A DNA stretch of 20,613 nt from a virus (IMGVR_UViG_3300038443_000757:1-20613), one strand, 5' to 3'. Shown: positions 9 through 18,169, numbered from the stretch's first letter. Notes: generated by a model not told the origin, from the letters alone. Numbers and translations are program-made.

Positions 9-24
9 TGTTTCACGTGGAACA
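9..24. other. parS: parS-like site (Spo0J/ParB box)
   Basis: TGTTTCACGTGGAACA, the reverse complement of TGTTCCACGTGAAACA; lies between module core and RBS. Confidence 0.85.
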
Positions 25-55
25 TTCTAGCCTAAAAATAGAGGATGGATGAAAA

Positions 56-268
56 ATGATAATCAATAATAAACTGCTTAAAGCGTTAGATAATGCGGCT
101 ATTGAATATAATGTCGATTGGAACGCCGTTCATACGCCATTCGGAATTGTTTACGACATGTCTGATTCTTTTACAGGCAAAGAGCGCTATGAATTCGAAA
201 ATGGTTACACTTGCTTAACAGTCGAAAGTGTAGTTAAAGGATTGGAAGAAATGGCCGCTGATTTTTAG
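56..268 (+). CDS. Hypothetical protein, 70 aa, acidic
   Basis: RBS AGGATGGATGA then ATG; module hairpin overlaps the stop. Confidence 0.85.
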   Translation: MIINNKLLKALDNAAIEYNVDWNAVHTPFGIVYDMSDSFTGKERYEFENGYTCLTVESVVKGLEEMAADF

Positions 269-314
269 CGGCTTGTGTTGCGTGACCACTAAACAGCTAA
301 AGGATGGATGACAA

Positions 315-476
315 ATGACGTATCAAGTAGCAGTATGGGAAATCGGCAATAAATATAGTGGACAATGGATAACTGTACATAATGTGAAAAGCGAAAAAAG
401 TGCTCGTTCTACTGTTCGTCTTTCATATCCGCCGGACAAATACAAACAAGGCAAAGTAAAACAAGTAAACAGTTAA
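315..476 (+). CDS. Hypothetical protein, 53 aa, basic (MTYQVAVWEIGNKYSGQW...)
   Basis: Read by hand; RBS at 301-311, ATG 315, TAA 474-476. Confidence 0.8.
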   Translation: MTYQVAVWEIGNKYSGQWITVHNVKSEKSARSTVRLSYPPDKYKQGKVKQVNS

Positions 477-483
477 ATAAAAA

Positions 484-499
484 TGTTTCACGTGGAACA
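484..499. other. parS: parS-like site
   Basis: TGTTTCACGTGGAACA; its left half also forms the module hairpin with CGTGAAAC at 504-511. Confidence 0.85.
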
Positions 500-553
500 A
501 TCGCGTGAAACGTGTTGCGGCACTGCCGACAAAACTTAAAGGATGGATGAACA

Positions 554-820
554 ATGAGACTTACAAAAGAGGAAATGAAAGAACAACCTAGCAAGCCTTA
601 TGCACTTTGCGCAACTTCGTATCATGCTAAAATCGAAGTTTGGACTATTAACCATTTAGACTTTGATATCATCACTGCATCTATTGACAGCGGAGATATT
701 CGCAAATTTAAAATTCAAGAGGACAAAGAAGAACGTCAATATTTCACGATTCAAGGCAGGCGCGTATATTTGGATGAATGCGTTAAATATGGTTCGCCAT
801 GGCTTGCCGCTATTGAATAA
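554..820 (+). CDS. Hypothetical protein, 88 aa
   Basis: ORF track; module RBS at 540-550. Confidence 0.85.
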   Translation: MRLTKEEMKEQPSKPYALCATSYHAKIEVWTINHLDFDIITASIDSGDIRKFKIQEDKEERQYFTIQGRRVYLDECVKYGSPWLAAIE

Positions 821-890
821 CCTTAATAAGCTACGCCTAAACAGCGTAGCGTGTTGCGGTACCACTAAACAATAGAGGATGGATGATAAA

Positions 891-1121
891 ATGACACAAT
901 TTACAATGGAACAGCTTAAACAGAAAAACGCGTATGTAAAAATGGATACGGGTATTGGTTTTCCTGTCTACTTTACACGAACGCAAGCAGGAACATGGAA
1001 GCATAGCAAATTTGGTTATGAAATGTCATGCGGCGATTTACTGGATAGCATGAACAGCGGATTGTATAGCGCTGAACTATTGATTGCTAAAGACTTCGAT
1101 AATGACTATGCCGCATTTTAA
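891..1121 (+). CDS. Hypothetical protein, 76 aa
   Basis: ORF track 879..1121, start moved to the ATG after the RBS. Confidence 0.85.
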   Translation: MTQFTMEQLKQKNAYVKMDTGIGFPVYFTRTQAGTWKHSKFGYEMSCGDLLDSMNSGLYSAELLIAKDFDNDYAAF

Positions 1122-1168
1122 TGCGGCTTGTGTTGCGGTACCACTAAACAATAGAGGATGGATGAACA

Positions 1169-1369
1169 ATGTATGTAGTAGAATGCGAAGCTTTTATAAA
1201 TCGTGAACAAGAGGCATACGAAATGTCAAATGGAGGACGCATTTATGATATTTTATATTTCGTTGCTGTTAATGGTAGTCATGTCGTTAGTTCGATGCAA
1301 GAGGTATCAAAAGTAATAGATTTACTTTGTGAGGCTGGTTATGTTGTTAATATAAGCCGTTTTTCTTAA
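1169..1369 (+). CDS. Hypothetical protein, 66 aa
   Basis: ORF track; module RBS at 1155-1165. Confidence 0.85.
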   Translation: MYVVECEAFINREQEAYEMSNGGRIYDILYFVAVNGSHVVSSMQEVSKVIDLLCEAGYVVNISRFS

Positions 1370-1412
1370 ACAGGTTGCCCACTATTGATATAGTGGGCAG
1401 TGTTGCGGAAAA

Positions 1413-1428
1413 TGTTTCACGTGAAACA
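1413..1428. other. parS: parS-like site
   Basis: Perfect palindrome TGTTTCACGTGAAACA between core (1400) and RBS. Confidence 0.88.
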
Positions 1429-1460
1429 TTTCTAGCCTAAACAGAACAGGAATGATGAAC

Positions 1461-1841
1461 ATGGCAGTAACGACACGTAAAGCATTCAAGGAACAAGTAC
1501 AAGAACATATTTTATACATTATGTCAGATGAAGAAACAAATGACGTTAAAGAACAATTACAAAACGTTGTAGACGGTTTCAATAACTGGTACGATGCATA
1601 TGAAAAGAAACAGAATCCTAACAGATGGGCGGCTATGGCTGATTGGTTCATGGGCTTGCCTTCTGAAATTAGCGTTGAATATCGTCACTATGCAATTAGC
1701 GCACTTTTGCAACAATGGTTTGAAAATTGCGGCGAAGAATACAAGGAACGCGAAGGTAATGAAGAACAAACGTTTTATAATTCCTTGATTATTCGTGAAT
1801 TCCTTGTATTGTGCCGCAAATATGGTATTAATGCTTATTAA
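1461..1841 (+). CDS. Hypothetical protein, 126 aa, phage-type (DWFMGLPS motif)
   Basis: ORF track 1452..1841; RBS AGGAATGATGA at 1448-1458. Confidence 0.85.
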   Translation: MAVTTRKAFKEQVQEHILYIMSDEETNDVKEQLQNVVDGFNNWYDAYEKKQNPNRWAAMADWFMGLPSEISVEYRHYAISALLQQWFENCGEEYKEREGNEEQTFYNSLIIREFLVLCRKYGINAY

Positions 1842-1915
1842 AATTGTAAGGCCCGCCTAAACAGCGGGCAGTGTAGCGGACATACCGCAATAACATAAAA
1901 GGAATGATGAATAGT

Positions 1916-2131
1916 ATGACTAAAGTAGAAGCGGAAACAATGTTTAAAATGGAAATACTGCCGGGGCTTATTCGCGGTTTGGAATCTAATGGAATTATTG
2001 ATAAACCAGCACGTCGCATGGCATGGAATAACTTTGTGCAGGCATTATATGAAGACGGCGACATAACAGAAAAGCAATGTTATTCATGGGGCCATCCTGT
2101 ATGGCTTGAAACATGTTCCCCAAAAGGCTAA
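1916..2131 (+). CDS. Hypothetical protein, 71 aa (AWNNF...DGDITEKQ...W motif, reminiscent of small phage proteins)
   Basis: ORF track 1904..2131; RBS at 1900-1910. Confidence 0.85.
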   Translation: MTKVEAETMFKMEILPGLIRGLESNGIIDKPARRMAWNNFVQALYEDGDITEKQCYSWGHPVWLETCSPKG

Positions 2132-2147
2132 ACAACTAGGCCCAAAT

Positions 2148-2163
2148 TGTTCCACGTGAAACA
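2148..2163. other. parS: parS-like site
   Basis: TGTTCCACGTGAAACA at the centre of the extended inverted repeat 2140-2171. Confidence 0.9.
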
Positions 2164-2213
2164 ATTTGGGCAGTGTCGCGTTACCACTAAAAAATAGAAT
2201 GGATGGATGAACA

Positions 2214-2426
2214 ATGAGCATGAGAAATGAAGCCGTGAGAAGACTGGAAGCATTGCGGGAACGTGGTATTTCTGATACAGAAATATTAGAATACATTCTA
2301 TATCATTATTTAAGCGGCGACGCATCATGCGAAACGCTGGAAGCATTCGCACATTATGAATGTGATTTCTCTTTTGAAGAGGAAGAGGAAACAGAAGAGG
2401 AAACAGAAGAAGAGGAAGAGGATTAA
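2214..2426 (+). CDS. Hypothetical protein, 70 aa, with poly-Glu acidic tail
   Basis: ORF track; ends EEEEETEEETEEEEED. Confidence 0.85.
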   Translation: MSMRNEAVRRLEALRERGISDTEILEYILYHYLSGDASCETLEAFAHYECDFSFEEEEETEEETEEEEED

Positions 2427-2492
2427 AAGACGTGCCCGCCTAAACAGCGGGCCGTGTCGCGTTACCACTAAAACTTAAAGGATGGATGAAAA

Positions 2493-2663
2493 GTGAGATT
2501 ATACGTAGAAGAACAACATGTTGTAAATTCGAATGAGGTAGATTCTTTTATTGAAACAAAAGAGAAAAACGGGTTTACAGTCAAAGACATTTCATATTAC
2601 GTAGTTGACGAAAAAGTTAAAAAGCTTGTCATTATTGAAAAATGGAATAAATCAATTAGTTAA
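2493..2663 (+). CDS. Hypothetical protein, 56 aa (GTG start, MRLYVEEQHVV...)
   Basis: Read by hand; RBS at 2479-2489, TAA 2661-2663. Confidence 0.8.
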   Translation: MRLYVEEQHVVNSNEVDSFIETKEKNGFTVKDISYYVVDEKVKKLVIIEKWNKSIS

Positions 2664-2665
2664 AA

Positions 2666-2681
2666 TGTTTCACGTGGAACA
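2666..2681. other. parS: parS-like site
   Basis: TGTTTCACGTGGAACA; its right half pairs with ATGTTCCA (2689-2696) to form the module hairpin. Confidence 0.85.
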
Positions 2682-2736
2682 TTATCAAATGTTCCATTGT
2701 GTCGCGTTACCACTAAAACTTAAAGGATGGATGAAA

Positions 2737-3024
2737 ATGAAAACAGAATTTATCTATGTTAACGAAACGTCGAAGTTTTGGAAGCACTCATACAAAGTTT
2801 GGTTATCTGAATTTAATTACGTTATTGTTAATGCTGACTATGAACAAGATGCATTAGATTTTGCTATTGATTATGCAGAATCTCAAAATTGGAATGGATT
2901 ATTTTTAACAGAAGAAGAAAGAAAAGAAATAGAAAACGATGGTTTTTTAGATGACTATGTAAGTGGAGGTAATCACGGAAAATATCTTTCATCATTAAAT
3001 GTTACAATCGTTCAATTAGATTGA
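2737..3024 (+). CDS. Hypothetical protein, 95 aa, acidic
   Basis: 3' part of track ORF 2605..3024; start placed after the module RBS at 2724-2734. Confidence 0.85.
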   Translation: MKTEFIYVNETSKFWKHSYKVWLSEFNYVIVNADYEQDALDFAIDYAESQNWNGLFLTEEERKEIENDGFLDDYVSGGNHGKYLSSLNVTIVQLD

Positions 3025-3095
3025 ACCTAAACAGCCGCATAGTATTTATGCGGCTTGTGTTGCGTCATACTCTAAACAGAATAGGAATGATGAAT

Positions 3096-3329
3096 ATGGA
3101 AATTATCAAAAGGAAAACAGTGGAAATTAATAAATATGTGCATGTATCAATTGCCCATCGTAGCGATGGATTATTTGATGTTGCAGTTAAAACAAATTAT
3201 TTCCCTCCATTGACAAAATGGGAAATAGAAGAAAGTGAAGTACCAGCACGGGAAGGCATTTCAAGTATGCAGGTATATGGATATATTGAATACGAAGTTA
3301 AGCCAGCTTATTTATTTGAGAAAATTTAA
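3096..3329 (+). CDS. Hypothetical protein, 77 aa
   Basis: 3' part of track ORF 3021..3329; RBS at 3083-3093. Confidence 0.8.
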   Translation: MEIIKRKTVEINKYVHVSIAHRSDGLFDVAVKTNYFPPLTKWEIEESEVPAREGISSMQVYGYIEYEVKPAYLFEKI

Positions 3330-3340
3330 ACAAAACAAAA

Positions 3341-3356
3341 TGTTTCACGTGGAACA
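3341..3356. other. parS: parS-like site
   Basis: TGTTTCACGTGGAACA, inside the 71-bp repeat shared with 480-550. Confidence 0.85.
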
Positions 3357-3410
3357 ATCGCGTGAAACGTGTTGCGGCACTGCCGACAAAACTTAAAGGA
3401 TGGATGACAA

Positions 3411-3764
3411 ATGCAAGAACAAAAACAACTTATTACAGACGTTGAAGGCTTCGAACATGTAGAAGCGTTTTTAGTGCAAGCAGTGGGGAAACCGCTAAAG
3501 TTGCATATGAAAACATGCATGCCTAACAGCGATGAAACTTTTGTTGTTATTGCTGGCTTCGTTCATTCGTTTGAAATTCAGACATCATGCAATCGCGAAG
3601 GTTTTTGCATTCAATTAAGAAAACGTAACAGCGGATTATTTGACGGTACAGAAAACTTTTACGGCAACTTCGAAAAATTCGAATTGAAAACGTATGGAAT
3701 AAGTAAAGTTTTACGTGTTCTTTATAAAGATAAATCATTCTTTGAAATTGAAGTATTCATGTAA
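3411..3764 (+). CDS. Hypothetical protein, 117 aa
   Basis: ORF track; module RBS upstream. Confidence 0.85.
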   Translation: MQEQKQLITDVEGFEHVEAFLVQAVGKPLKLHMKTCMPNSDETFVVIAGFVHSFEIQTSCNREGFCIQLRKRNSGLFDGTENFYGNFEKFELKTYGISKVLRVLYKDKSFFEIEVFM

Positions 3765-3829
3765 TAATCTTGCCACGCTAAACAGCGTGGCGTGTCGCGT
3801 GACAACTAAAATAGATGGAGTGATGAAAA

Positions 3830-4018
3830 ATGGTTAAAGTTAATGAAATTGAAACTAGCTTTTACGAAGGCAAAGAAGTTAAAATAGTTTGCTTTTCTTG
3901 CCATCATGCAATATCTACACATGAAGTGACATTTGAAAGTGTTGTTAATAAACAGCGTATTCCACTATGTTATGAATGCCTTAAACAACTATTTAAAGAA
4001 ACAGCCGCTAATATATAG
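3830..4018 (+). CDS. Putative zinc-finger protein, 62 aa (CxxC...CxxC)
   Basis: CFSC...CYEC; RBS GGAGTGATGA. Confidence 0.75.
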   Translation: MVKVNEIETSFYEGKEVKIVCFSCHHAISTHEVTFESVVNKQRIPLCYECLKQLFKETAANI

Positions 4019-4070
4019 CGGCTTGTGTCGCGGTAAAACCGCTAAAACAAAAACAAAGGATGGATGACAA

Positions 4071-4499
4071 ATGTCTAAAGTAGAACACTTTCAATCTATT
4101 GTTAAATCTTATGGTGGATTTATTTTAAGCGATGGCACATGCAATCTTCAGCACATATTACCTAAAGCGTATGATTTATTAGAAGGCATGGAAGCTAACG
4201 AAGAATTACGCGCCTCTATCCTTACATGCTTCAACATTGAGGACATGGAATATGTTGAAAGTCATGGCTTGTTCATGTCACAATATCATGGAGAAGCTAC
4301 AATTCAAGAAAGTGCATATGAATCAGCTTCTTATGTTTGGAATGAAGACGTTTATAATTATTTCAACAACATTGCGCCTAGCGGCTATTATTTCGGCAGT
4401 AGTGAAGGCGATGGAGCTTGTATTGGATGGTTTAAAATTGAAGAAGAAGAATGTGAATGTGGAGATTTTGGTTGTAAAGTTTGTGGGGACGATGTTTAA
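4071..4499 (+). CDS. Hypothetical protein, 142 aa, acidic (APSGYYFGSSEGDG motif)
   Basis: ORF track; module RBS upstream. Confidence 0.88.
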   Translation: MSKVEHFQSIVKSYGGFILSDGTCNLQHILPKAYDLLEGMEANEELRASILTCFNIEDMEYVESHGLFMSQYHGEATIQESAYESASYVWNEDVYNYFNNIAPSGYYFGSSEGDGACIGWFKIEEEECECGDFGCKVCGDDV

Positions 4500-4568
4500 A
4501 ACACTAGGCACACTAAACAGTGTGCCGTGTCGCGTTAAACCAAACTAAACAGAATAGGAATGATGACT

Positions 4569-4691
4569 ATGCAAGAATTGAAAAACTATAAGAAAATGGA
4601 TTTAATTATTTTTATTTCTATTATATCTATCCCATTTACATTAGCTTTAATTGCTATCATTTATGCTATCTCATTTTTAGCGGCTAAATAG
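4569..4691 (+). CDS. Small membrane protein, 40 aa
   Basis: Read by hand; hydrophobic run LIIFISIISIPFTLALIAIIYAISFL; RBS at 4556-4566. Confidence 0.75.
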   Translation: MQELKNYKKMDLIIFISIISIPFTLALIAIIYAISFLAAK

Positions 4692-4738
4692 CCGCTTGTG
4701 TCGCGTTACACTCTAAAACAAAAAGGATGGATGAATGA

Positions 4739-5026
4739 ATGATTAAATTGACGCTTGAAGAATTGAAACAGCGTAAAGATAAATGGAAAACGGCTGTTAT
4801 TGTATTCGATCAAAAGAGTTTTGACGGGAATACTTACACACATGAAGAACGTTCTTACAAAGTTTCAAGCGATGCAAAATGGTTCGATGATAGTATGATT
4901 GGCATGTCTCTTATTGGCAACTGCTTGGACGGTATAGATTTAGGCGTTCGCCTTGACTTGTACATGAGATTGCTTCCAAGTGAAGGAACGCGATGGATTG
5001 TAGAATATTGCTACATTGTCGAATAA
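4739..5026 (+). CDS. Hypothetical protein, 95 aa (LDGxDxGVRLD...W-x-VEYCY motif, reminiscent of Bacillota mobile-element proteins)
   Basis: ORF track; module RBS at 4724-4734. Confidence 0.88.
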   Translation: MIKLTLEELKQRKDKWKTAVIVFDQKSFDGNTYTHEERSYKVSSDAKWFDDSMIGMSLIGNCLDGIDLGVRLDLYMRLLPSEGTRWIVEYCYIVE

Positions 5027-5093
5027 AACACAATGCCACGTATATAACGTGGCGTGTCGCGTTACCACTAAACAGTTAAAGGATGGATGAAAA

Positions 5094-5345
5094 ATGAAAT
5101 TGCAAAATGAGCTTCAAAATGTAGTTGATAAAATGGAAGAAATTAAAGAGAAGATTGGAAAACACGCGATAGCATTGAAAGAAAGTGGAAAATTTAAGGA
5201 CTTTGAAACAAGGCTTGCATGGGATTGCTTATATGCAGTAGTTGGAAGCAATACTATTTGTGAATGGTACAAAAAATATGACTGTAACGATAGTCATATT
5301 GAAACATTAGCAAAGAAAGCATTAAAGAAAGTTTATCAAATATAA
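5094..5345 (+). CDS. Hypothetical protein, 83 aa (RLAWD...NDSHIET motif)
   Basis: ORF track; module RBS upstream. Confidence 0.88.
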   Translation: MKLQNELQNVVDKMEEIKEKIGKHAIALKESGKFKDFETRLAWDCLYAVVGSNTICEWYKKYDCNDSHIETLAKKALKKVYQI

Positions 5346-5415
5346 ATAGAATGCCGCATGTTTTACATGCGGCTTGTGTTGCGTCAAACTACAATAACAA
5401 AGGATGGATGATAAA

Positions 5416-5625
5416 ATGATTAAAGTAACAGATAACGCATTAAACAAAGTTGGTCAAAGTGTAGATATTATTGTTCCTGTTTCACTCTTTAACAGAACAA
5501 AGAAAACAGTTAAACGTGTATTACATAAACGTCAAGCATTCGGCATGGATTTACTCTATGTACATTATGACGGTTTAAGTTTATTCGTAACAGAAGGCAA
5601 GAACGAAACATTTGTAATGCTTTAA
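5416..5625 (+). CDS. Hypothetical protein, 69 aa
   Basis: Track ORF 5404..5625, start moved to after the RBS. Confidence 0.85.
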   Translation: MIKVTDNALNKVGQSVDIIVPVSLFNRTKKTVKRVLHKRQAFGMDLLYVHYDGLSLFVTEGKNETFVML

Positions 5626-5639
5626 ATGTTTTATTGGAT

Positions 5640-5655
5640 TGTTTCACGTGAAACA
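5640..5655. other. parS: parS-like site
   Basis: TGTTTCACGTGAAACA inside the perfect 28-bp palindrome TTGGATTGTTTCACGTGAAACAATCCAA (5634-5661). Confidence 0.9.
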
Positions 5656-5704
5656 ATCCAAGTGTTGCGGACATACCGCAAATAACAGTAAGGGAATGAT
5701 GAAT

Positions 5705-5785
5705 ATGGCAAGTATGACAATTGAACAAATTAAACAATTAACGAGTAAAACAGTATGCCGCGCATGTCGCGGCAGTGTTGCGTGA
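5705..5785 (+). pseudogene. 26-codon ORF running into the next module; probable truncated cassette or micro-peptide
   Basis: MASMTIEQIKQLTSKTVCRACRGSVA; its TGA lies just after the core at 5775. Confidence 0.5.
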
Positions 5786-5812
5786 CCATTATAAAATAGA
5801 GGATGGATGAAA

Positions 5813-6061
5813 ATGAAAAACATTAAAACAGCAATAATTAACGTTTACGTTGAAATGGCTGGCAATACAGATGTTGTACTATTTGACAAACAATATTCTA
5901 AAGCTTTCTACATACCAGTAAGAGGACTAGAACACGAAAGCTTAAAAGAGTTAATCGAATTAGAATACTATGACGTTGAAGAAGTTAATGACACTATGAT
6001 TAATGAAATTATTTCCGCTATTAAATCAGTGGCATTACAGTTATCATTTATTGGCGACTAG
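5813..6061 (+). CDS. Hypothetical protein, 82 aa, acidic
   Basis: Track ORF 5807..6061; RBS at 5800-5810. Confidence 0.85.
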   Translation: MKNIKTAIINVYVEMAGNTDVVLFDKQYSKAFYIPVRGLEHESLKELIELEYYDVEEVNDTMINEIISAIKSVALQLSFIGD

Positions 6062-6165
6062 TTTTCTAGTCGCGGCGAAATTACAGATATGAAATAACAC
6101 AAACAGCCGCATGTTTTACATGCGGCTTGTGTCGCGGTACATTAAACAGTAAAGGATAGATGATG

Positions 6166-6309
6166 ATGAAAAAGATTAAAGTAAAACATACTTATACTTG
6201 TGTTGGATGCAAAGAACGAATTACAAGCAACATACCAAATAATACATTATGTTTATGGTGCCGTGCTAAACAGAACAGCAATAAAGAGTTAATGGAGGCT
6301 GTTAAATGA
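6166..6309 (+). CDS. Putative zinc-finger protein, 47 aa (CVGC...CLWC)
   Basis: Read by hand; RBS AGGATAGATGA. Confidence 0.7.
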   Translation: MKKIKVKHTYTCVGCKERITSNIPNNTLCLWCRAKQNSNKELMEAVK

Positions 6310-6395
6310 ATTACAACTATCGTTTAAATCGTAGCTTATTGGTCCTAGCATTCATTAATGGATTATTCTTATTATTCTACAAATTAGCGGCATAA
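6306..6395 (+). CDS. Small hydrophobic peptide, 29 aa
   Basis: Read by hand; GGAGG at 6294-6298; ATGA overlap with the upstream gene; ends inside the module hairpin. Confidence 0.6.
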   Translation: MNYNYRLNRSLLVLAFINGLFLLFYKLAA

Positions 6396-6450
6396 ACAGC
6401 CGCTAGTGTCGTGGTACATACCACAAATAACAGAAAAAGGAATGATTGAT

Positions 6451-6660
6451 ATGCAGAATTGGTATTTCGTTTGTTTTGTAAATGATAGGGTAATTCATGC
6501 CCAACATTTCCATACTGGTTATGAGAATGCACAACAAATTGCAAGCAACATGTATAATTTTGGTATAATTATTGAAGGCGAAACAGTAGAATTTACACGT
6601 GTTGTAGCTATATCAGAACAGCATGAAATTGCATTCGACGTTAGAGGACAAATTGACTAA
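6451..6660 (+). CDS. Hypothetical protein, 69 aa
   Basis: 3' part of track ORF 6406..6660; RBS AGGAATGATTGA. Confidence 0.82.
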   Translation: MQNWYFVCFVNDRVIHAQHFHTGYENAQQIASNMYNFGIIIEGETVEFTRVVAISEQHEIAFDVRGQID

Positions 6661-6722
6661 GCCGCTTATGCGGCTTGTGTCGTGGTACATACCACAAATA
6701 ACAATGAAGGATGGATGATAAA

Positions 6723-6971
6723 ATGAACGCGAAAAGAATTGTAGCATTAGGTGAAGAGGCAAACAAGTTTATTAGAAACATTGACAAGGTTGAAGCGCTG
6801 GAAAACAAAATTTCCGATATACTGGATAAAACGAAAGAAGCGGACTATTACGCTAATGATTTACAGAATTTATATGAAGCACTTACGACATTGCGCGAAG
6901 CAATGCAGGACGTGGACAATGCAATATCAAACATTCATTCCAGTGTTGAAGAGGATGAAGATAATTTGTAA
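6723..6971 (+). CDS. Hypothetical acidic coiled-coil protein, 82 aa
   Basis: Track ORF 6711..6971; heptad-like Leu/Ile pattern. Confidence 0.85.
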   Translation: MNAKRIVALGEEANKFIRNIDKVEALENKISDILDKTKEADYYANDLQNLYEALTTLREAMQDVDNAISNIHSSVEEDEDNL

Positions 6972-7030
6972 GCATAGCGCCTTAATTGGCGCGTGTCGCG
7001 TTACCATTATAAAACAAAGGAATGATGAAT

Positions 7031-7303
7031 ATGTGGCGTATTACTTATGATTGGCTAGACAAGAAAAAGATTAACATTCAATCTGCTAACTTCGATCAAA
7101 AAAAATGGGATGAATTGCCTAAAGAAGAAAAAACAAAAATCAAACTTTATGATGACGATGACAATCTGTATTACGATGGTGAAACGTCTTGGATTAATGC
7201 AGGCGAATCAAAAGCATTTCAGCCGCTTGACTGGGCGGCAGGATATGCAGGATGTACTTACATGAAGTATAAGGACAAAGATGGAGAATGGAAGGTGTTG
7301 TAA
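7031..7303 (+). CDS. Hypothetical protein, 90 aa (LYDDDDxxYYxG...PLD...AGCT motif)
   Basis: Track ORF 7022..7303; RBS upstream. Confidence 0.88.
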   Translation: MWRITYDWLDKKKINIQSANFDQKKWDELPKEEKTKIKLYDDDDNLYYDGETSWINAGESKAFQPLDWAAGYAGCTYMKYKDKDGEWKVL

Positions 7304-7304
7304 A

Positions 7305-7580
7305 ATGGGCAGAAGAAAAGTGGCTTATACAAAAGCAGAATGTCCACATTGTAAAAAATATTTCGGTAGAAATATGCTGGAGTATCATATTAGAGAAAAA
7401 TGTGTAATTGCAAAGAACAAGACTAATGGGTCAAAGGAAAAGATGCTTGCAGACAGATTAGAATATGTAAAAACTGCTACATTCGATGATTTAACATTAA
7501 CAATTGGTGAGATTCAAAAGGCTGGAAGATTAGAAGAATTCCAAGAATATTTTAAAAACATTACTAAACCCGCCGAATAA
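7305..7580 (+). CDS. C2HC-type zinc-finger protein, 91 aa
   Basis: CPHC-x11-H-x4-C; ATG 1 nt after the upstream stop. Confidence 0.75.
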   Translation: MGRRKVAYTKAECPHCKKYFGRNMLEYHIREKCVIAKNKTNGSKEKMLADRLEYVKTATFDDLTLTIGEIQKAGRLEEFQEYFKNITKPAE

Positions 7581-7608
7581 AGCGGGTTTTGTGTTGCGGA
7601 CTTCGCAT

Positions 7609-7624
7609 TGTTCCACGTGGAACA
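7609..7624. other. parS: parS-like site
   Basis: Palindrome TGTTCCACGTGGAACA between core (7591) and RBS. Confidence 0.85.
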
Positions 7625-7653
7625 TTATCAAACAATAGAGGATGGATGATAAA

Positions 7654-8091
7654 ATGAAATTGTTAGCAGATGTAGTAAAACGTGCAGAAGAAAAACAAAA
7701 CGCTGTTAATGCTACACATGTAAGAAAGGAAGAAGTTGAACAACTTTTCCTTTCCATCTGTTACAAGCACATGACAGAATTTAAATCAATCTTTAAAGTT
7801 GTGGAAACAAAAGATGCAATTAATAATAATGACCGCTGTTATGGTGCATTGATTCGCATTGCCGATCGTCCTACTTCATGGAGTAGTGATGGATGGAAAA
7901 TTGCAATTTCTGATACTTACAATAGAAAGACATGGGAAAAGGATGTTAGTTTACGTGTTGGATATAATGCTGGGACGTATGACGGCAAAAAGATTCCATT
8001 CGACTACAATCAAACAGATGTTCAACTTACATTATTGTTTGAAAATGCATTACGCTTGCTTGCTTCAATGAAACTGAATAGAATGATTTAA
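7654..8091 (+). CDS. Hypothetical protein, 145 aa
   Basis: Track ORF 7642..8091, start moved to after the RBS. Confidence 0.87.
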   Translation: MKLLADVVKRAEEKQNAVNATHVRKEEVEQLFLSICYKHMTEFKSIFKVVETKDAINNNDRCYGALIRIADRPTSWSSDGWKIAISDTYNRKTWEKDVSLRVGYNAGTYDGKKIPFDYNQTDVQLTLLFENALRLLASMKLNRMI

Positions 8092-8157
8092 CCTAAACAG
8101 CGGACATTAATTGTCCGCTTGTGTTGCGGTACCATTAAACTTTAGGGGATGATTGAA

Positions 8158-8439
8158 ATGATTATTGTATTCGAATGTGGTATGTCTAAAGGACAAATAG
8201 TTGAAGTTGATTCAGATATTACACGTACTTATTGGCGCTTCGTTGTTAAAATGGAAGACAACAAAGTCTTTGAAGGCGAATCATATTCGACGCCTAAACA
8301 TTGGAGCAATGAACGTGTGGCGAAGGAATTGATTGAATGGGGAATTCATGAGTTGGGCGAAGAAATTGATTATTACGGAATATTCAATCTTAACGATGAA
8401 GATAGTCCAATCATTGATTCAATTCACGTGCTCGCATAA
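8158..8439 (+). CDS. Hypothetical protein, 93 aa, acidic
   Basis: Track ORF 8149..8439; exact start uncertain. Confidence 0.82.
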   Translation: MIIVFECGMSKGQIVEVDSDITRTYWRFVVKMEDNKVFEGESYSTPKHWSNERVAKELIEWGIHELGEEIDYYGIFNLNDEDSPIIDSIHVLA

Positions 8440-8489
8440 TGCGAGCAGTGTCGCGGTATACACAAATACAAAAATAAATGATGATGGAC

Positions 8490-8519
8490 TTGCATAATTC
8501 AACGGGATACGTGTATACT
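8490..8519 (+). promoter_or_regulatory. Possible sigma-A promoter for the helicase
   Basis: TTGCAT-N18-TATACT. Confidence 0.5.
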
Positions 8520-8570
8520 AATAAGAGTTAGACAAATGCAATATAAAACAAGCTAATGGAGATGATGAAG

Positions 8571-10610: not shown

Positions 10611-10640
10611 GCCGCTTCTTCCCTTTGGGGAGGAATTGTG

Positions 10641-10844
10641 ATGAACAATATAGATAAAGTATTCAATGCACTTCCAGATGGAGAAGAATTAAAAGCTGAA
10701 TTGAAGCAATTAGAAGACATGAGAACACTGCATGCAAGACGACAAAGTGAAGTGGTTGCCTTTTATTACATTGAACTTATTAGATTTTGGGAAAAAGTAG
10801 CGGTTAAATTGGAGGAAGTAATTTCTGAAAATATGGAATGGTAA
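10641..10844 (+). CDS. Hypothetical protein, 67 aa
   Basis: ORF track; RBS GGGGAGGA. Confidence 0.8.
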   Translation: MNNIDKVFNALPDGEELKAELKQLEDMRTLHARRQSEVVAFYYIELIRFWEKVAVKLEEVISENMEW

Positions 10845-10860
10845 GGCAGTAAAAATAATT

Positions 10861-10945
10861 TGAGAGAGTAGCATAAAGCTACTCTCTCATTAATAGAATA
10901 ATAGTGTAGCGGATAACCGCAAATAACAACGTGGAGTGATGAACA
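10861..10945 (+). repeat. Outlying module: 12-bp stem hairpin, GTGTAGCG core (10904), GGAGTGATGA RBS
   Basis: TGAGAGAGTAGC/GCTACTCTCTCA; here the core is 14 nt from the hairpin; core tail GTGTAGCGGATAACCGCAAATAAC resembles those at 1871 and 5662. Confidence 0.8.
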
Positions 10946-11188
10946 GTGACAACGGCAACGGCTAATGCGACTTGGACAATGGAGAAGTCAATCATTGTAG
11001 GCAATGCATTCCTGTATGATAAGGCTGGCAAACGGCATTATGTCCATTTCCAAATTCCTGATCAAAAGGACAGAATACTAGTCACGACTATCAAAGGGAT
11101 GAAACCTGCAAAGCTTACAAAAGGTGTCATTTCAATGGTCCAAGAACAAGTTAAGGCGTGGACAGGAGAAGAAAAGAAAGTGTATTAA
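10946..11188 (+). CDS. Hypothetical protein, 80 aa (GTG start)
   Basis: ORF track; module RBS. Confidence 0.8.
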   Translation: MTTATANATWTMEKSIIVGNAFLYDKAGKRHYVHFQIPDQKDRILVTTIKGMKPAKLTKGVISMVQEQVKAWTGEEKKVY

Positions 11189-11194
11189 ACAGTG

Positions 11195-11259
11195 AAGAGG
11201 CGCTAACTATGCGCCTCTTTTGTGTCGCGTGACCAAAAAAATTAAGGGAGATGATTAAA
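11195..11259 (+). repeat. Outlying module: hairpin + GTGTCGCG (11222) + RBS
   Basis: AAGAGGCGC/GCGCCTCTT, then TTGTGTCGCGTGACCAAAA. Confidence 0.85.
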
Positions 11260-11796
11260 GTGAAAAAGGGTTTTGTTATTAGCACTGCAATTGCAATGAC
11301 GTTCGCACTGTCTGCTTGTGGTAGCAATGGAAACGTACTAAACAGCAACAAATCTGCATTGCAACAAAATGTAAAGGTTGAACAGGTTGACGCTTCGCTT
11401 ATTACTGCTGATGAACAGAAATATCTTGATGATTTAAGTAGTTACATGAACAATATGCAAACGTCACTGGATGCGCTTAAACAATTGCTTGACAGTCTTA
11501 GTCTTAAAGATACGGAATTGTGGCAAAAGCAATTTTCTGATATTACGGAAGTATACAGATTGTATATTGAAATTCTTAAGGCACAACCTTATCCTGAACG
11601 CCTGAAAGATGTTCACGATGCCTTCCTTGAAGCTACTACTGAACAATATAATGCTATTTTGCTACTGAAAGAAGGGCTTGACAATTCTGATTCTTCTAAA
11701 GTGAGTGAAGGTGTTGAGCACTTGAACAAGGCTAAAGTTGAAATTGAACGTTATGGCCTGTATGTTACAGAATTTAAAACTGGCAAACATAATTAA
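11260..11796 (+). CDS. Putative lipoprotein, 178 aa, alpha-helical
   Basis: MKKGFVISTAIAMTFALSAC: basic N-terminus, hydrophobic core, lipobox LSAC. Confidence 0.85.
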   Translation: MKKGFVISTAIAMTFALSACGSNGNVLNSNKSALQQNVKVEQVDASLITADEQKYLDDLSSYMNNMQTSLDALKQLLDSLSLKDTELWQKQFSDITEVYRLYIEILKAQPYPERLKDVHDAFLEATTEQYNAILLLKEGLDNSDSSKVSEGVEHLNKAKVEIERYGLYVTEFKTGKHN

Positions 11797-11797: not shown

Positions 11798-11813
11798 TGT
11801 TCTACGTGAAACA
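11798..11813. other. parS: parS-like site, one mismatch
   Basis: TGTTCTACGTGAAACA within TAATTGTT...AACAATTA. Confidence 0.7.
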
Positions 11814-11838: not shown

Positions 11839-11867
11839 TTGACATTATTAGGAATCGGGAATAAAAT
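11839..11867 (+). promoter_or_regulatory. Sigma-A promoter
   Basis: TTGACA-N17-TAAAAT with upstream AT-rich tract. Confidence 0.8.
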
Positions 11868-12711: not shown

Positions 12712-12741
12712 TACATATTATTCTAATAGGAGAGTGTTAAT

Positions 12742-13042: not shown

Positions 13043-13081
13043 TATAGATATAAAATAAAACAAATGAAAGAGGTAATGAAA

Positions 13082-13732: not shown

Positions 13733-13769
13733 ATGTAAGATAAAATAAATCTTAGGAGAGATGATTTAG

Positions 13770-14405
13770 ATGACCTTGAAAATTGTCCAAACTATCAATC
13801 AATCCATTGTTGATTATGTAGCTAAGGCAATCGAAGAATATGAAAAAGGCAGAGAAGGTTACATTGACAACTATGAAAGAGCAAGTATGTATAAACCTTT
13901 GTCAAGCTACTTCACTAAGCAAATTGGTGGTGGGTGTAATGGAGAAGTATTTGAATATGAAGGTTATGCTGTCAAATATTTTTCTGGTGCTGAACAATAT
14001 TGCAATGATGGTAAAATGCTTGAAGCTCTTAATGGTTCTCCGTACTTCCCTACAGTATATGCCCATGATAAAGATTTTATGATTATGGAAAGAATAATTG
14101 GATACTCTTTAGATGATTATTGTGTAGAATACGATAAGTTAAAGAATAAACTTCAAGTTTCTCCAGCTTTTAAATATCACCTAGAGAAAGCGTTTGAGCA
14201 TGCTGACAAAAGAGGCGTGGAGCTTACTGATTTAAAGAAAAGTAATATCATGATAAATGAAAGCGGCCTTCCTGTTATTGTTGATGCTGGAACATTTTAC
14301 CTTAAAGGTGAATTCCCTCCATTTAATATTGGCGGCAAGAGTTATTGCCTTGGATGGTGCAAGGAATTCATGGAGCAATATTGTAAATTTGAACTTGCAG
14401 TCTAA
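13770..14405 (+). CDS. Ser/Thr protein-kinase-like protein, 211 aa
   Basis: IGGGCNGEVF (Gly loop), AVKY, DLKKSNIM (catalytic loop), IVDAG (DFG-equivalent). Confidence 0.88.
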   Translation: MTLKIVQTINQSIVDYVAKAIEEYEKGREGYIDNYERASMYKPLSSYFTKQIGGGCNGEVFEYEGYAVKYFSGAEQYCNDGKMLEALNGSPYFPTVYAHDKDFMIMERIIGYSLDDYCVEYDKLKNKLQVSPAFKYHLEKAFEHADKRGVELTDLKKSNIMINESGLPVIVDAGTFYLKGEFPPFNIGGKSYCLGWCKEFMEQYCKFELAV

Positions 14406-14429
14406 TAACCAATAAGGGAGATAATGACA

Positions 14430-15110
14430 ATGGAACATATTAAAAATGAAACTGTTATTGTCGGCGGCATTAGTAAGATGCTTGTTCAAAAGATTGAAAA
14501 AATGATTGATGAACATGGCATTAATAATCTTAAAAAACTTGGATATGGCGCATTTGGAATTGTTTATGCACTTGGGAATTATGCAATTAAAATTTATGCA
14601 GGTTGTTTCAATGAAGATGAAGAATCTAATTGGGATGCTGTTAACTTGTTAAAGCTTCAAGGAAAAGATTCTCCATTCCTTAAATTATATGCTTATCATC
14701 ATAAAAAATTCATGATTTACGAGCGAGTGATGACAAAAAATTTGAGTACTTATAATTATCAATCTCCAATTTTGCATAGCCTTGATTTGAAGAAGGGTTT
14801 TGCAGAACACTATATGAATTGTTTGAGATATGCATTTGAGAGAGGATTATTGCCTTTCGACGCTAAGACTGACAATGTAATGATCAAGAACGGACTTCCA
14901 GTTATTGTTGATGTCGGCAATTTCTTGGAAAATGGTGGAACTTTCTATGGTGAAACATACTCTTATAAAACTTTTGAAGACTTCTTTGCCGATAGACGTT
15001 TTGACAATAAACTTAATGAGAAGAAAGTTAAGGAATTTTATCAAAATCATGTAAGTAAGGGGTATTCAATTAAGGAAACGCATGACACACTGAAAGAATT
15101 CGTAATGTGA
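14430..15110 (+). CDS. Ser/Thr protein-kinase-like protein, about 226 aa
   Basis: LGYGAFGIVY, AIKIY, DAKTDNVM, IVDVG; alternative start at 14424. Confidence 0.88.
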   Translation: MEHIKNETVIVGGISKMLVQKIEKMIDEHGINNLKKLGYGAFGIVYALGNYAIKIYAGCFNEDEESNWDAVNLLKLQGKDSPFLKLYAYHHKKFMIYERVMTKNLSTYNYQSPILHSLDLKKGFAEHYMNCLRYAFERGLLPFDAKTDNVMIKNGLPVIVDVGNFLENGGTFYGETYSYKTFEDFFADRRFDNKLNEKKVKEFYQNHVSKGYSIKETHDTLKEFVM

Positions 15111-15117
15111 CATAAAT

Positions 15118-15133
15118 TGTTTCACGTGGAACA
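15118..15133. other. parS: parS-like site
   Basis: TGTTTCACGTGGAACA, 7 nt after the kinase stop. Confidence 0.85.
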
Positions 15134-15192
15134 TTTTCCGTTTTGCGTGAAACCGTACATATACCTTATTATATGAAATGGAGAGTGATGGC

Positions 15193-15384: not shown

Positions 15385-15397
15385 GGAGATGATTGAA

Positions 15398-15547: not shown

Positions 15548-15840
15548 GTCAACTAATCAATAACGCCATTGAAGCACGTATGGCCCTTAGACGCTCACAA
15601 ATGAGGTATAAAGCGATCCTCATGATAGGGTGTGGGTTTACCCTAAATGATGGCTTGTGGCGTTCTGGAGGGCATTGTATGGACGACAGAACGTATCGCA
15701 AGCTAGACTATGACAGTCTGGTTCAGCTTCTGAAGTGGATGGGAGTGTTAGAAAATAAAGTTTTAAAAACGTTTGACACTTTGGGGATTATCGCATACAA
15801 TAAGAACATGAACAACACGACAAACGAAAGAATAAATTAA
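15544..15840 (+). CDS. Hypothetical protein, 98 aa
   Basis: ORF track; ATGA overlap; the 3' end contains a promoter and low-complexity Asn/Thr codons. Confidence 0.65.
   Translation: MSQLINNAIEARMALRRSQMRYKAILMIGCGFTLNDGLWRSGGHCMDDRTYRKLDYDSLVQLLKWMGVLENKVLKTFDTLGIIAYNKNMNNTTNERIN
15773..15801 (+). promoter_or_regulatory. Sigma-A promoter inside the 3' end of the upstream ORF
   Basis: TTGACA-N17-TACAAT. Confidence 0.78.
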
Positions 15841-15858
15841 ACGAAGGGATTGATCATC

Positions 15859-16008
15859 ATGAAAAACCCACAAGAAAAGTTGGCGGCAATCGTAGGCAAG
15901 GAGAATGCAGAGCAGTATGTGAGTACCGTCAAGGCAATGATTGAAGCTGATGACTTCATGAATCAAGAGCAGGTGGACGAAAAGATTCCCGCACAATATG
16001 AGGTATAA
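15859..16008 (+). CDS. Hypothetical protein, 49 aa, acidic (MKNPQEKLAAIVG...)
   Basis: Read by hand; RBS AAGGGA; downstream of the 15773 promoter. Confidence 0.7.
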   Translation: MKNPQEKLAAIVGKENAEQYVSTVKAMIEADDFMNQEQVDEKIPAQYEV

Positions 16009-16095
16009 AAAAGTTCACTGCGGCATACAATGATAACATGAAGCACAAACGGCAACTAAGTCAGACAGATAACAAATAAAATTAATAAAAATTGT

Positions 16096-16124
16096 TTGAC
16101 AGCAAGAAATGATTGTGGTAAGAT
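16096..16124 (+). promoter_or_regulatory. Sigma-A promoter with extended -10
   Basis: TTGACA-N17-TAAGAT, TG at the extended -10 position. Confidence 0.8.
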
Positions 16125-16183
16125 GAAATCAAGTTAATGAATGAAAGAAAAACCCAAACCAAACTAAGGAGAAGTGATTAAAG

Positions 16184-17344
16184 ATGGCAAATCAAACAAT
16201 GGTAGCAGTTCCAAGTAATGGTGTTGTAGTAGGCAAGATGAAACGTACCAACTCCACCAAGACAATCAAACAAATCATGAAAAACGAAAGCAAGTATCGC
16301 TTCGATCTGGCAATTCAGCGCAACACTGTATGGAGCGATATTCAAAAATCGATGCTGATCAACTCCATCATGGAAGAGTTTCCAATTCCTCTGGTGTTCA
16401 TTCGTGCTACGGATGACGGATACTTTTGGATGATCGATGGTAAACAGCGCTTCACAACAATCTTCGACTTCATCAATGAAAAATTCCCGCTTCACAAAGA
16501 TACACCTTCCGTAACAGTGGAGCGCGTAATCAAAATTGAAGGAAAAGAAGATCAAACAGCCATTGAAGAAGTTGAAGTTGAAGGTAAGTATTTCTCTGAA
16601 CTTGACAAAGAGCTTCAAGATGACATTCTTGATTATAGCATGTCAATTGTTGAAATCAAGAATATCACTGATGAACAAGTCGAAGAACTTTTCCAGCGTC
16701 TGAATGCTGGTTCGCCTCTCACGGCAATGGAGTTGACACGTGCAATGTCTGGAACGAAGACGATGGAATTCGTTGATAAAATTTCCAAAACGACATTCTT
16801 CTCCGACTTCGCTTCAATTAGCGTAGCTCAACGGAATCGTTACACGGACAATGAGCTTATCATGCAAATTATGATGTTGCTTGCAGGCCGTCAAAGTGAT
16901 CTTGGTTCCAAGGAAATCAAAGAATTTGCCTCTTCGCTTCGTGAAGTTGGTATTGAAACAGTTGTTGATGAAACTCCTTTCTTCGCTACGATTGATTACC
17001 TTGAAAAAGCTTTTGAAACATTTGATGGTACGGATGCTGAAAAGAACCGTAAAATCCGTAACAGAATGCTTAAAAAGGTACACATTCCAGTGTTGTTCTT
17101 GACAGCACAAGAAACAGCGGCGGCTGGCGTTGATCCTGTCGAATTTGGCAAGTGGGCATATCAATTCTTGGTAGTTGACAAGAAGAAAAATGGCACGAAC
17201 GGAGCGACTTACAACAATTACTGCGGAAGCGCTACGCATAAGTGGAATAAGGTTGCTGGACGTATCAAAACGATGCAAGCTTCTGCGCGTGAGACGTTCA
17301 ACCTGACGGCTCAACAAGAAGTGGCGGCAAGCACTGAAGAATAA
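16184..17344 (+). CDS. DUF262-domain protein (ParB/Srx-like fold, as in the GmrSD N-terminus), 386 aa
   Basis: IQRNTVWS, FPIPLVFI, IDGKQRFTTI, LFQRLNAGSPL motifs. Confidence 0.88.
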   Translation: MANQTMVAVPSNGVVVGKMKRTNSTKTIKQIMKNESKYRFDLAIQRNTVWSDIQKSMLINSIMEEFPIPLVFIRATDDGYFWMIDGKQRFTTIFDFINEKFPLHKDTPSVTVERVIKIEGKEDQTAIEEVEVEGKYFSELDKELQDDILDYSMSIVEIKNITDEQVEELFQRLNAGSPLTAMELTRAMSGTKTMEFVDKISKTTFFSDFASISVAQRNRYTDNELIMQIMMLLAGRQSDLGSKEIKEFASSLREVGIETVVDETPFFATIDYLEKAFETFDGTDAEKNRKIRNRMLKKVHIPVLFLTAQETAAAGVDPVEFGKWAYQFLVVDKKKNGTNGATYNNYCGSATHKWNKVAGRIKTMQASARETFNLTAQQEVAASTEE

Positions 17345-17351
17345 GAAATTG

Positions 17352-17383
17352 GGGCACATGATCGATCAAGTGGTTGTGTGCCC
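17352..17383 (+). terminator. Hairpin after the DUF262 gene
   Basis: GGGCACA...TGTGCCC. Confidence 0.55.
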
Positions 17384-17403
17384 TTCCTACATACAAAAAT
17401 AAT

Positions 17404-17432
17404 TTGACTTCATTTCTTACAAATGATATAAT
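17404..17432 (+). promoter_or_regulatory. Sigma-A promoter with extended -10
   Basis: TTGACT-N17-TATAAT with TG. Confidence 0.85.
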
Positions 17433-17462
17433 AAATTAAAACCAAATCAAGGAGAGATGAAC

Positions 17463-18152
17463 ATGTCTGACATGATTCGTAAGATTCAAATGCTACTCCG
17501 TAAAACGCCTGAAAATGGAGCTACGGAGGCTGAATCACAGTCCGCATTGTTGATGGCTCAAAAGCTTATGCTTCAACACAATTTGACAATGGACGATGTT
17601 GAAGAGATTGAAAGTGATAAAAAGATTCCGCTTAATATTCGTAAAGAAGCATATAAAAAACCTGTAACAAATTACATGAATCTTCCTTGGTGGTACGGTT
17701 CGTTGGCAATGATTATATCTGAAAACTTCAGGTGCTTTTGCTTTAAACAAACAGATTGGAGGAACGGTAAAGGTAAACGTCTTGTATTTCTTGGCCTGAA
17801 AGAAGATGCGCAAATTGCAAATGATGTATTCCATTTCGCTGTTAAGTGCATTGAACATTTGTCTAAAGGATATCTTAATGACAATCTTGTTTCAACAAAG
17901 AAAATGACACGAACAAAAAATGATTATATATTTGGCTATCTTGATAGTCTTACAGAATTATTCAAAAAACAAGTTGAAGACAGTTTTCAACTTGCACTTG
18001 TCAAAGATGAAATTGTTGTTTCTGAATATGATAAAATAAAATTAAAAGATGCACGTAAAACAAAAATAGGCATTGCTGGCGATAATGATGCATATGAAAC
18101 AGGGTTTGAGGATGGTAAAAACTTCAACTATGGAGCTAAGGCATTGAAATAA
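17463..18152 (+). CDS. DUF2786-domain protein, 229 aa
   Basis: N-terminal KIQMLLRK...EAESQSALLMAQKLMLQHNL; start after RBS AAGGAG. Confidence 0.78.
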   Translation: MSDMIRKIQMLLRKTPENGATEAESQSALLMAQKLMLQHNLTMDDVEEIESDKKIPLNIRKEAYKKPVTNYMNLPWWYGSLAMIISENFRCFCFKQTDWRNGKGKRLVFLGLKEDAQIANDVFHFAVKCIEHLSKGYLNDNLVSTKKMTRTKNDYIFGYLDSLTELFKKQVEDSFQLALVKDEIVVSEYDKIKLKDARKTKIGIAGDNDAYETGFEDGKNFNYGAKALK

Positions 18153-18153
18153 T

Positions 18154-18169
18154 TGTTCCACGTGAAACA
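18154..18169. other. parS: parS-like site
   Basis: TGTTCCACGTGAAACA, 1 nt after the stop. Confidence 0.9.

Follow-up and report, generated by a model that had tools for sequence, protein, structure and literature searches.

The DNA analyzed here, called the window throughout, is the whole of the 20,613-nucleotide stretch IMGVR_UViG_3300038443_000757:1-20613. It makes up the initial 20.6 kb of an IMG/VR virus record of 169,219 bp that is rated complete by CheckV. The window opens with short early genes arranged in an array, with a repeated intergenic module between them. Interspersed with these and later genes are eleven copies of parS, the 16-bp palindromic centromere at which the chromosomal partition protein ParB (Spo0J in Bacillus subtilis) nucleates. 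The two ends of the record share a 182-bp overlap with one mismatch, leaving 169,037 unique bp, and the junction is contiguous in a contig (L141) from another sample. Because the ends overlap and this contig crosses the junction, the map is circular or concatemeric. Two further parS matches are present in the genome, at 168792 and 169046, the latter being the overlap copy of the site at 9. Twelve unique sites thus fall within 18.4 kb spanning the junction, or about 11% of the genome, and the remaining 150.6 kb hold none. The features are collected in Table 1.

Table 1. parS sites and associated features, in window coordinates except for the site at 168792, which is numbered on the full record
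Feature	Position	Strand	Context
Short early-gene array with repeated module	1-11260	+	begins at genome 168768
parS TGTTTCACGTGGAACA, type A	9-24		3 nt past GTGTTGCG, 31 nt before start codon; duplicated at 169046
parS, type B	484-499		left half pairs with downstream CGTGAAAC; hairpin runs right up to GTGTTGCG (512)
parS, ideal palindrome TGTTTCACGTGAAACA, type A	1413-1428		5 nt after GTGTTGCG (1400)
parS TGTTCCACGTGAAACA, type B	2148-2163		tip of extended palindrome GCCCAAAT..ATTTGGGC, ending 1 nt before GTGTCGCG (2173)
parS, type B	2666-2681		right half pairs with downstream TGTTCCA; hairpin ends 2 nt before GTGTCGCG (2699)
parS, type B	3341-3356		copy of module at 484
parS, ideal palindrome, type B	5640-5655		extended palindrome TTGGAT..ATCCAA abuts GTGTTGCG (5662)
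parS TGTTCCACGTGGAACA, type A	7609-7624		10 nt after GTGTTGCG (7591), 17 nt before start codon
parS, degenerate TGTTCTACGTGAAACA, 1 mismatch	11798-11813		1 nt past stop codon; 25 nt upstream of promoter-like match
parS outside array	15118-15133		7 nt past stop codon; extra half-site CGTGAAAC 12 nt downstream
DUF262/GmrSD_N gene, 386 aa	16184-17344	+	ParB/Srx-fold NTPase domain and helical C-terminal half
parS outside array	18154-18169		1 nt past stop of DUF2786/DUF7168 gene
parS, type A	168792		exact to TGTTNCACGTGNAACA

The window was searched for TGTTNCACGTGAAACA with up to two mismatches, and 100 dinucleotide-preserving shuffles served as background. Ten of the eleven boxes are exact to TGTTNCACGTGNAACA and the one at 11798 carries one mismatch, while the shuffles yielded a mean of 0.05 boxes and a maximum of 2. 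Elsewhere in the genome, the two-mismatch level is reached at only 2 places. All eleven window sites are intergenic in a region that is 16% intergenic (chance P ~2e-9). An earlier note on this DNA had reported these eleven boxes, including the extra mismatch at 11798, and had called all of them intergenic; both statements held up in full. Given the genomic distribution of intergenic DNA, the probability that all twelve sites would lie in the cluster region is ~1.7e-9. The sites are spaced 0.25–4 kb apart; they are most crowded where the early array begins (7 in 3.6 kb) and sparser towards 18 kb. They lie 1–43 nt past a stop codon and, where a following gene was called, 17–151 nt before its start.

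The sequences of the sites place them among known centromeres. Seven of the twelve read TGTTCCACGTGAAACA on one strand, a site that B. subtilis carries within its parB (spo0J) gene and that ParB binds tightly in vitro (PMC4333373). Two are TGTTTCACGTGAAACA, the ideal parS palindrome (PMC7383237), two read TGTTCCACGTGGAACA, and one reads TGTTCTACGTGAAACA. Variation among the exact sites is limited to positions 5 and 12, and the natural parS consensus is degenerate at these same positions (PMC7022226). The box had been described as that of B. subtilis Spo0J. This is too narrow, since the 16-bp palindrome TGTTNCACGTGAAACA is the general chromosomal parS consensus (PMC7022226, PMC7383237), although seven of the sites do equal the spo0J-internal one. 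Judged by their sequence, the boxes are best explained as genuine chromosomal-type parS.

The cluster also adjoins the point at which the two arms of the genome diverge in gene strand and in cumulative GC skew. To the right of the junction (1–80 kb) nearly all genes are on the plus strand, to the left (83–165 kb) most are on the minus strand, and the cumulative skew turns at ~168 kb and ~80 kb. Because skew follows transcription here, this location is at most consistent with an origin-proximal cluster, like that of chromosomal parS beside oriC.

Most of the sites are built into the intergenic module. In order, the module consists of a GC hairpin of free sequence, 0–4 nt, the motif GTGTYGCG, ~20 nt that often read GTACCACTAAAC..., the ribosome-binding site GGATGGATGA, and an ATG; the ribosome-binding site is itself unusual. 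GTGTYGCG occurs 28 times on the plus strand of the record, 26 of these in the array from 168768 to 11222, and twice on the minus strand. Nine of the twelve parS sites lie inside modules at two fixed positions, 17–54 nt before the start codon. The four type A sites are between GTGTYGCG and the ribosome-binding site, and the five type B sites are upstream of GTGTYGCG. In all five type B modules, a hairpin built from parS, or from one half together with an extra half-site, stops 0–2 nt short of GTGTYGCG, in the slot that an unrelated GC hairpin fills in other modules. Thus, the palindromic centromere has been fitted into the module's one sequence-free part. This fixed placement of parS within a repeated intergenic module is new. 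The three out-of-array sites (11798, 15118, and 18154) directly follow stop codons. The best sigma-A-like promoter match, TTGACA-17-TAAAAT, is at 11839.

On the plus strand of window positions 1–8.5 kb, no promoter-like site reached 10 of 12 matches, so the array may be one long, module-punctuated transcript. A leaky terminator, a processing site, and a special promoter are candidate roles for the module. A scan of IMG/VR for the module motif GTGTYGCGKTACCAYTAAA returned three chance single matches, with neither arrays nor parS. Two modules are near duplicates, the one at 484 being 98.7% identical over 75 bp to that at 3337–3410. Further side observations concern the same units. Five parS sites occur in "1.5-site" arrangements that are capable of forming hairpins, with an extra half-site (CGTGAAAC or TGTTCC) 4–12 nt downstream (484–525, 2666–2697, 3341–3382, 15118–15153, and 18154–18187). 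Near-identical copies pair 484–560 with 3337–3410 and 9–45 with 1400–1450, and Logan contigs from other soil samples contain inter-module joints with short sides of 20–44 nt. These copies and joints hint that modules are shuffled as cassettes by inter-module recombination.

Comparison with relatives indicates how such an array behaves over time. The closest metagenomic relative (L149/L150) has a helicase that is 75% identical at the amino acid level, and its neighboring genes are 30–78% identical or replaced. It carries ten GTGTYGCG modules and four exact parS within 9.5 kb, with sites of type A, type B, and the after-stop kind. The slots differ, however. In the relative, a parS sits in the module between the homologs of genes 10946 and 11251, a slot left empty in the window. 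After gene 11251 the situation is reversed, with a parS in the window and none in the relative. Thus, the number and density of parS are maintained while individual positions turn over, and this fits a loading platform better than gene- or promoter-specific operators. A more distant contig (L146; 51–54% amino acid identity in the DUF262 and DUF2786/DUF7168 proteins) has one exact parS, one gene beyond the slot that the window's 18154 site occupies. Four contigs with 53–54% helicase identity (L151–L154), one of them from a 170.5-kb contig, lack parS, the module, and any other repeated palindrome. No parS was found in the genomes of Tsamsa (a tyrovirus), PJN02, FADO, 2S-4, KKP_3916, Sundance, or MTATph1, and published tyrovirus descriptions do not mention it. 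The array is therefore a recent acquisition, specific to this lineage.

Other viral contigs also carry host-type parS without ParB. Among 118 IMG/VR stretches listed, nine have at least three parS, with a maximum of five. The five richest records (L099, L014, L037, L038, and L094) contain 3–5 exact parS and no ParB_N domain. One of them, L099, is a complete 15,876-bp record with inverted terminal repeats, and it resembles phi29 in size and ends.

No protein encoded by the phage is a convincing reader of the sites. A six-frame search of the entire 169 kb for ParB_N (PF02195), HTH_ParB (PF17762), and the ParA-type AAA_31 (PF13614) found nothing, whereas control genomes scored. This extends to the whole genome the earlier note's statement that the window has no parAB genes, and it means that the genome has no ParABS cassette of its own of the P1 or N15 type. 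The note had also named an element-encoded ParB specific for this box as one of the threats to a role for the host protein. The sole ParB-fold candidate is the DUF262/GmrSD_N protein, which Pfam assigns to GmrSD_N only. Its AlphaFold model has a predicted local distance difference test score of 84.6. A fold search with this model returned BrxU and SspE first, and the N-domains of ParB, Noc, and KorB matched it weakly, with template-modeling scores of ~0.2. The protein shares its GmrSD_N/DUF262 ParB/Srx-fold domain with GmrSD, BrxU, and SspE (PDB 7p9k, 6jiv) but, unlike these, lacks a recognizable DUF1524/HNH nuclease half, and it has no HTH_ParB. Homologs with 31–36% identity are encoded by PJN02, FADO, 2S-4, Sundance, and KKP_3916, whose whole genomes are without parS at up to one mismatch. 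Syntenic DUF262 genes are present in the relatives L151 and L153, whose 17- to 22-kb loci likewise lack parS. The protein is therefore not a canonical ParB, it has homologs in seven parS-free phage genomes or loci, and we rejected it as the likely parS binder; it is unlikely to read these sites.

Some observations on the neighborhood of this gene stand apart from that question. The DUF262/GmrSD_N gene and the DUF2786/DUF7168 gene that follows it (16184–18152) form a pair that is conserved in L146, L151, and L153. Distant DUF262 homologs adjoin SSB and RadC genes on plasmid-like contigs (L147/L148), with a ParA-type gene ~5 kb away. These surroundings suggest a function of the anti-defense or leading-region type.

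The rest of the record shows what kind of element carries the array. It encodes a terminase, portal, and tail proteins, along with PolIII-alpha, ribonucleotide reductase, RecD2-like and UvrD-like helicases, nine tRNAs, and two tyrosine-recombinase-like proteins. These structural genes and the complete-virus rating rule out host chromosome beside oriC, an origin that the earlier note had kept in view. The window is a phage early-gene array and no part of a plasmid, and the mobile-element accessory region described in that note has to be discarded. A TubZ-like GTPase of the tubulin/FtsZ family is encoded at genome 132,571–134,013 (L136:12571-14013), in what looks like the phage's own segregation module. 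A 100-aa gene, a candidate TubR, precedes it, and an M23 peptidase gene and an open reading frame (ORF) of at least 880 aa are nearby. The phage is probably temperate or plasmid forming, because it has both the two recombinase-like genes and the TubZ-like GTPase.

The same DNA was found in at least 11 soil or rhizosphere metagenome runs, and no RNA run was among the listed runs that hold the region. The closest cultured relative of its PolIII-alpha is that of Brevibacillus phage Sundance (58% amino acid identity), and its UvrD-like helicase shares 45–48% identity with the helicases of CP-51-type and SPO1-type Bacillus phages. The isolates nearest to the phage infect Brevibacillus, Bacillus, and Alicyclobacillus. 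A megablast of the entire window against phage and plasmid collections gave zero matches. Searches with the helicase against viral contigs and with PolIII-alpha against genome contigs found no relatives and gave no prophage-based host call. As the best explanation, we infer a phage of a Bacillales-like soil bacterium. The B. subtilis host assumed at first is not supported; the record is from soil and rhizosphere metagenomes, and its nearest isolate is a Brevibacillus phage.

Directly upstream of the window, across the junction, lies an ORF-free region of 3 kb (genome 165,700–168,800; L138:15700-18800). It contains an exact Noc-binding core, ATTTCCCGGGAAAT, at 166149, two exact Fur 7-1-7 boxes at 166104 and 166966, nine of the fourteen cre-like palindromes AAGCGCTT in the genome, and an inverted pair of Spo0A boxes at 167063/167089. 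One exact DnaA box, at 166751, is present with repeats in the region; DnaA boxes are not enriched. A G-rich tract and three ~40-bp inverted repeats are found there as well. These predicted sites suggest that the phage may use several host DNA-binding proteins, although the AAGCGCTT repeats could equally be operators of a repressor of its own. Noc is limited to Firmicutes (PMC7383237). The Noc site, a SpoVK-like ATPase encoded by the phage (scoring under the cut-off for its family), and the fact that the nearest isolates infect Bacillales all point to a Bacillus-like, Firmicute host. The region includes an ORF-free stretch of ~49% GC, compared with 35% genome-wide, at 167,990–168,700 (L138:17990-18700), directly before the early-gene array and behind a promoter-like TTGACG-17-TATGGT. 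This GC-rich stretch may be a structured leader or noncoding RNA; Rfam had no match in the window or in the final 19 kb of the genome.

What could such an array do? ParB dimers nucleate at parS, bind cytidine triphosphate (CTP), close as clamps, and slide (PMC8367383, PMC7614844). The resulting multi-kilobase complex is moved by ParA and loads SMC (same sources and PMC7022226). With no ParB encoded by the phage, binding is expected to fall to that of the host, and we regard it as likely from the sequences that host ParB binds the phage boxes. In the mechanism that we propose, host ParB (Spo0J) would nucleate at all twelve sites, close as a CTP clamp, and slide. With sites only 0.25–4 kb apart, one large ParB–DNA complex would come to cover the whole 18-kb early region. 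It would form mainly while this one-strand region is silent, the phage being dormant, lysogenic, or a plasmid. Phage DNA would thereby be tied to the host origin-segregation apparatus (ParA/Soj and SMC), so that the phage would be inherited with host origins and, should the host form spores, be captured in the forespore like phi29. Overall, host ParB loading on the silent early region for origin-linked inheritance is our best explanation, although our confidence in it is evenly balanced. That segregation or entrapment is the purpose of the array is a more tentative proposition. The earlier note's claim that the element hijacks host ParB therefore survives as the best reading, given host-type, nonrandom boxes and no phage ParB, whereas the purposes that it attached to the hijack go beyond what the sequence can decide.

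Several observations weigh against origin-linked inheritance. A phage with a TubZ-type motor of its own does not obviously need a second, borrowed partition device. The parS trait is young and dispensable for this type of phage, being absent from Tsamsa and the six other phage genomes named above and from the relatives at 53–54% identity. Spo0A boxes, the companions of parS in the phi29 strategy, show no genome-wide enrichment: counting both strands, TGTCGAA is found 20 times, compared with ~21 expected, and forms a single inverted pair, the one in the upstream control region. No palindrome like the ram site of RacA was found. Finally, sites in transcribed intergenic modules fit a transcriptional role equally well.

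Such a role could take the form of host ParB borrowed as a global repressor, whose clamps slide over or block the early cassettes and so silence the takeover genes as long as ParB is available. The exclusively intergenic placement suits this idea, as do the nine sites at two fixed module places 17–54 nt before a start and the three out-of-array sites behind stop codons, including the one at 11798 that lies 25 nt upstream of the sigma-A-like match. There is precedent in KorB-CTP clamps, which silence promoters at a distance (PMC11790492), and in the chromosomal ParB of Pseudomonas aeruginosa, which represses parS-adjacent promoters (PMC5521831). However, the slots are not conserved in the 75% relative, which is unexpected of gene-specific operators, no KorA-like clamp-locking partner is known here, and no canonical promoters were detected in 1–8.5 kb for ParB to occlude. 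Canonical chromosomal ParB is also only a weak repressor, which counts further against this role, and we consider it unlikely. A composite is conceivable in which ParB clamps at parS, placed as the module hairpin or between GTGTYGCG and the ribosome-binding site, both switch the takeover array off or on and mark the silent genome for segregation. We give this little credence; if it were true, early-gene expression would be tied to ParB, a host chromosome-segregation protein.

The array might instead be a weapon. Twelve sites multiplied by the replicating copies could soak up host ParB. This would free Soj/ParA, interfere with SMC loading, the control of replication, and the onset of sporulation, and so keep the cell productive for the phage. 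The sites are indeed numerous, sit on an amplifying replicon, and occupy the early, host-takeover region that would enter first. In addition, B. subtilis parB mutants over-replicate and are defective in sporulation and SMC loading (PMC7022226). Nevertheless, titration requires no special placement, yet the sites are clustered and apparently origin proximal instead of being spread, and a protein inhibitor would achieve the same more cheaply. In phi29, moreover, parS acts in cis for segregation (PMC2731898). Titration is thus an improbable purpose. Least likely, and in our judgment very doubtful, is that the match is incidental, the boxes being operators of an unrecognized phage protein or mere module hairpins with no relation to host ParB. 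This would account for type B parS and half-sites forming hairpins 0–2 nt before GTGTYGCG, exactly where other modules have an unrelated GC hairpin, and for the co-occurrence of parS and the module array in the same sublineage. The ParB/Srx-fold DUF262 protein encoded between two sites would be at hand as a binder. But the other hairpins are freely GC rich, and only these twelve sites and five in relatives equal the centromere 16-mer, varying solely at its known degenerate positions. Type A and out-of-array sites are outside the hairpin position, and a loopless, perfect 16-bp palindrome is a poor RNA hairpin alone. As for the DUF262 protein, its homologs in PJN02, FADO, 2S-4, Sundance, KKP_3916, L151, and L153 all occur without parS, and its fold matches BrxU and SspE ahead of ParB, with no HTH_ParB.

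It is useful to compare the array, read as a loading platform for host ParB, with the known systems. The virulent Bacillus phages phi29 and Nf likewise have several host-consensus parS and no phage ParB, with host Spo0J/ParB as the expected binder (PMC2731898, citing Meijer et al. 2005). In phi29, five parS and host Spo0J bring the genome into the prespore; this Spo0J-dependent spore entrapment relies on sites that work in cis while transcription of the genome is silenced. The phi29 precedent invoked in the earlier note is thus a valid one, and the present genome shares its defining combination of multiple host-consensus parS on a parB-less phage. It differs in that phi29 has five sites, with Spo0A boxes at early promoters, as opposed to twelve sites, mostly module-built, in 11% of the genome. 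Moreover, phi29 is a small, protein-primed podovirus, whereas the element studied here, a tailed phage of 169 kb, encodes recombinase-like proteins and a TubZ-like motor. The B. subtilis chromosome has ten parS, eight of them in the origin domain (PMC7022226). The chromosomal ParABS–SMC region and the phage cluster have in common the same 16-bp sequence and a clustering of sites on one side of a strand and GC-skew switch. On the chromosome, however, parS are tens of kilobases apart and at least one lies within a gene (parB; PMC4333373), compared with 0.25–4 kb, exclusively intergenic sites, and no parAB here. The KorB-OB system of plasmid RK2 (PMC11790492) also disperses many ParB-family sites in intergenic and regulatory DNA, where clamp sliding could regulate at a distance. 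RK2 encodes both KorB and its clamp-locking partner KorA, whereas the phage has no detectable ParB-family DNA binder; neither ParB_N nor HTH_ParB was found that could make up an element-encoded repressor of the KorB/OB type.

The phi29 genome is ~19 kb long. With five sites on a genome of that size, the density of parS in the phage cluster is only ~2.5-fold that of phi29. The unusually high density that had been claimed was thus overstated. In print, phi29 and its close kin are the cases in which a phage exploits host ParB by way of its own parS. Relative to these, the best reading of the sequence is that the phage has the phi29 principle in a larger, denser, and modular form, kept in one relative and on a phage that would have a segregation motor of its own. 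Twelve sites on a 169-kb phage that encodes no ParB, together with their maintenance in a relative, suggest that the trick extends well beyond the phi29 family. At this density, the sites should give rise to a centromere-like complex that equals the host's in size. Because of the module placement, mutations can separate the function of the DNA site from that of the module. The array offers a way to find out which benefit host ParB brings to a phage, be it inheritance, entrapment in spores, loading of SMC, silencing of genes, or sabotage of the host.

Minor observations concern the population and other genes of the region. Logan contigs from four soil runs are fragmented, and many of their joints and loose ends are at parS 16-mers, some of which continue into high-GC sequence. 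Such continuations probably belong to different soil organisms in which the 16-mer also occurs. No change in a parS box was among the base differences listed for these four runs; divergence is too low for this constancy to count, and it was not used as evidence. Finally, two tandem short protein-kinase-like genes (phrog_18305 "kinase"; weak Pkinase and ABC1 matches) are located at window 13770–15110, within the parS-bearing region.

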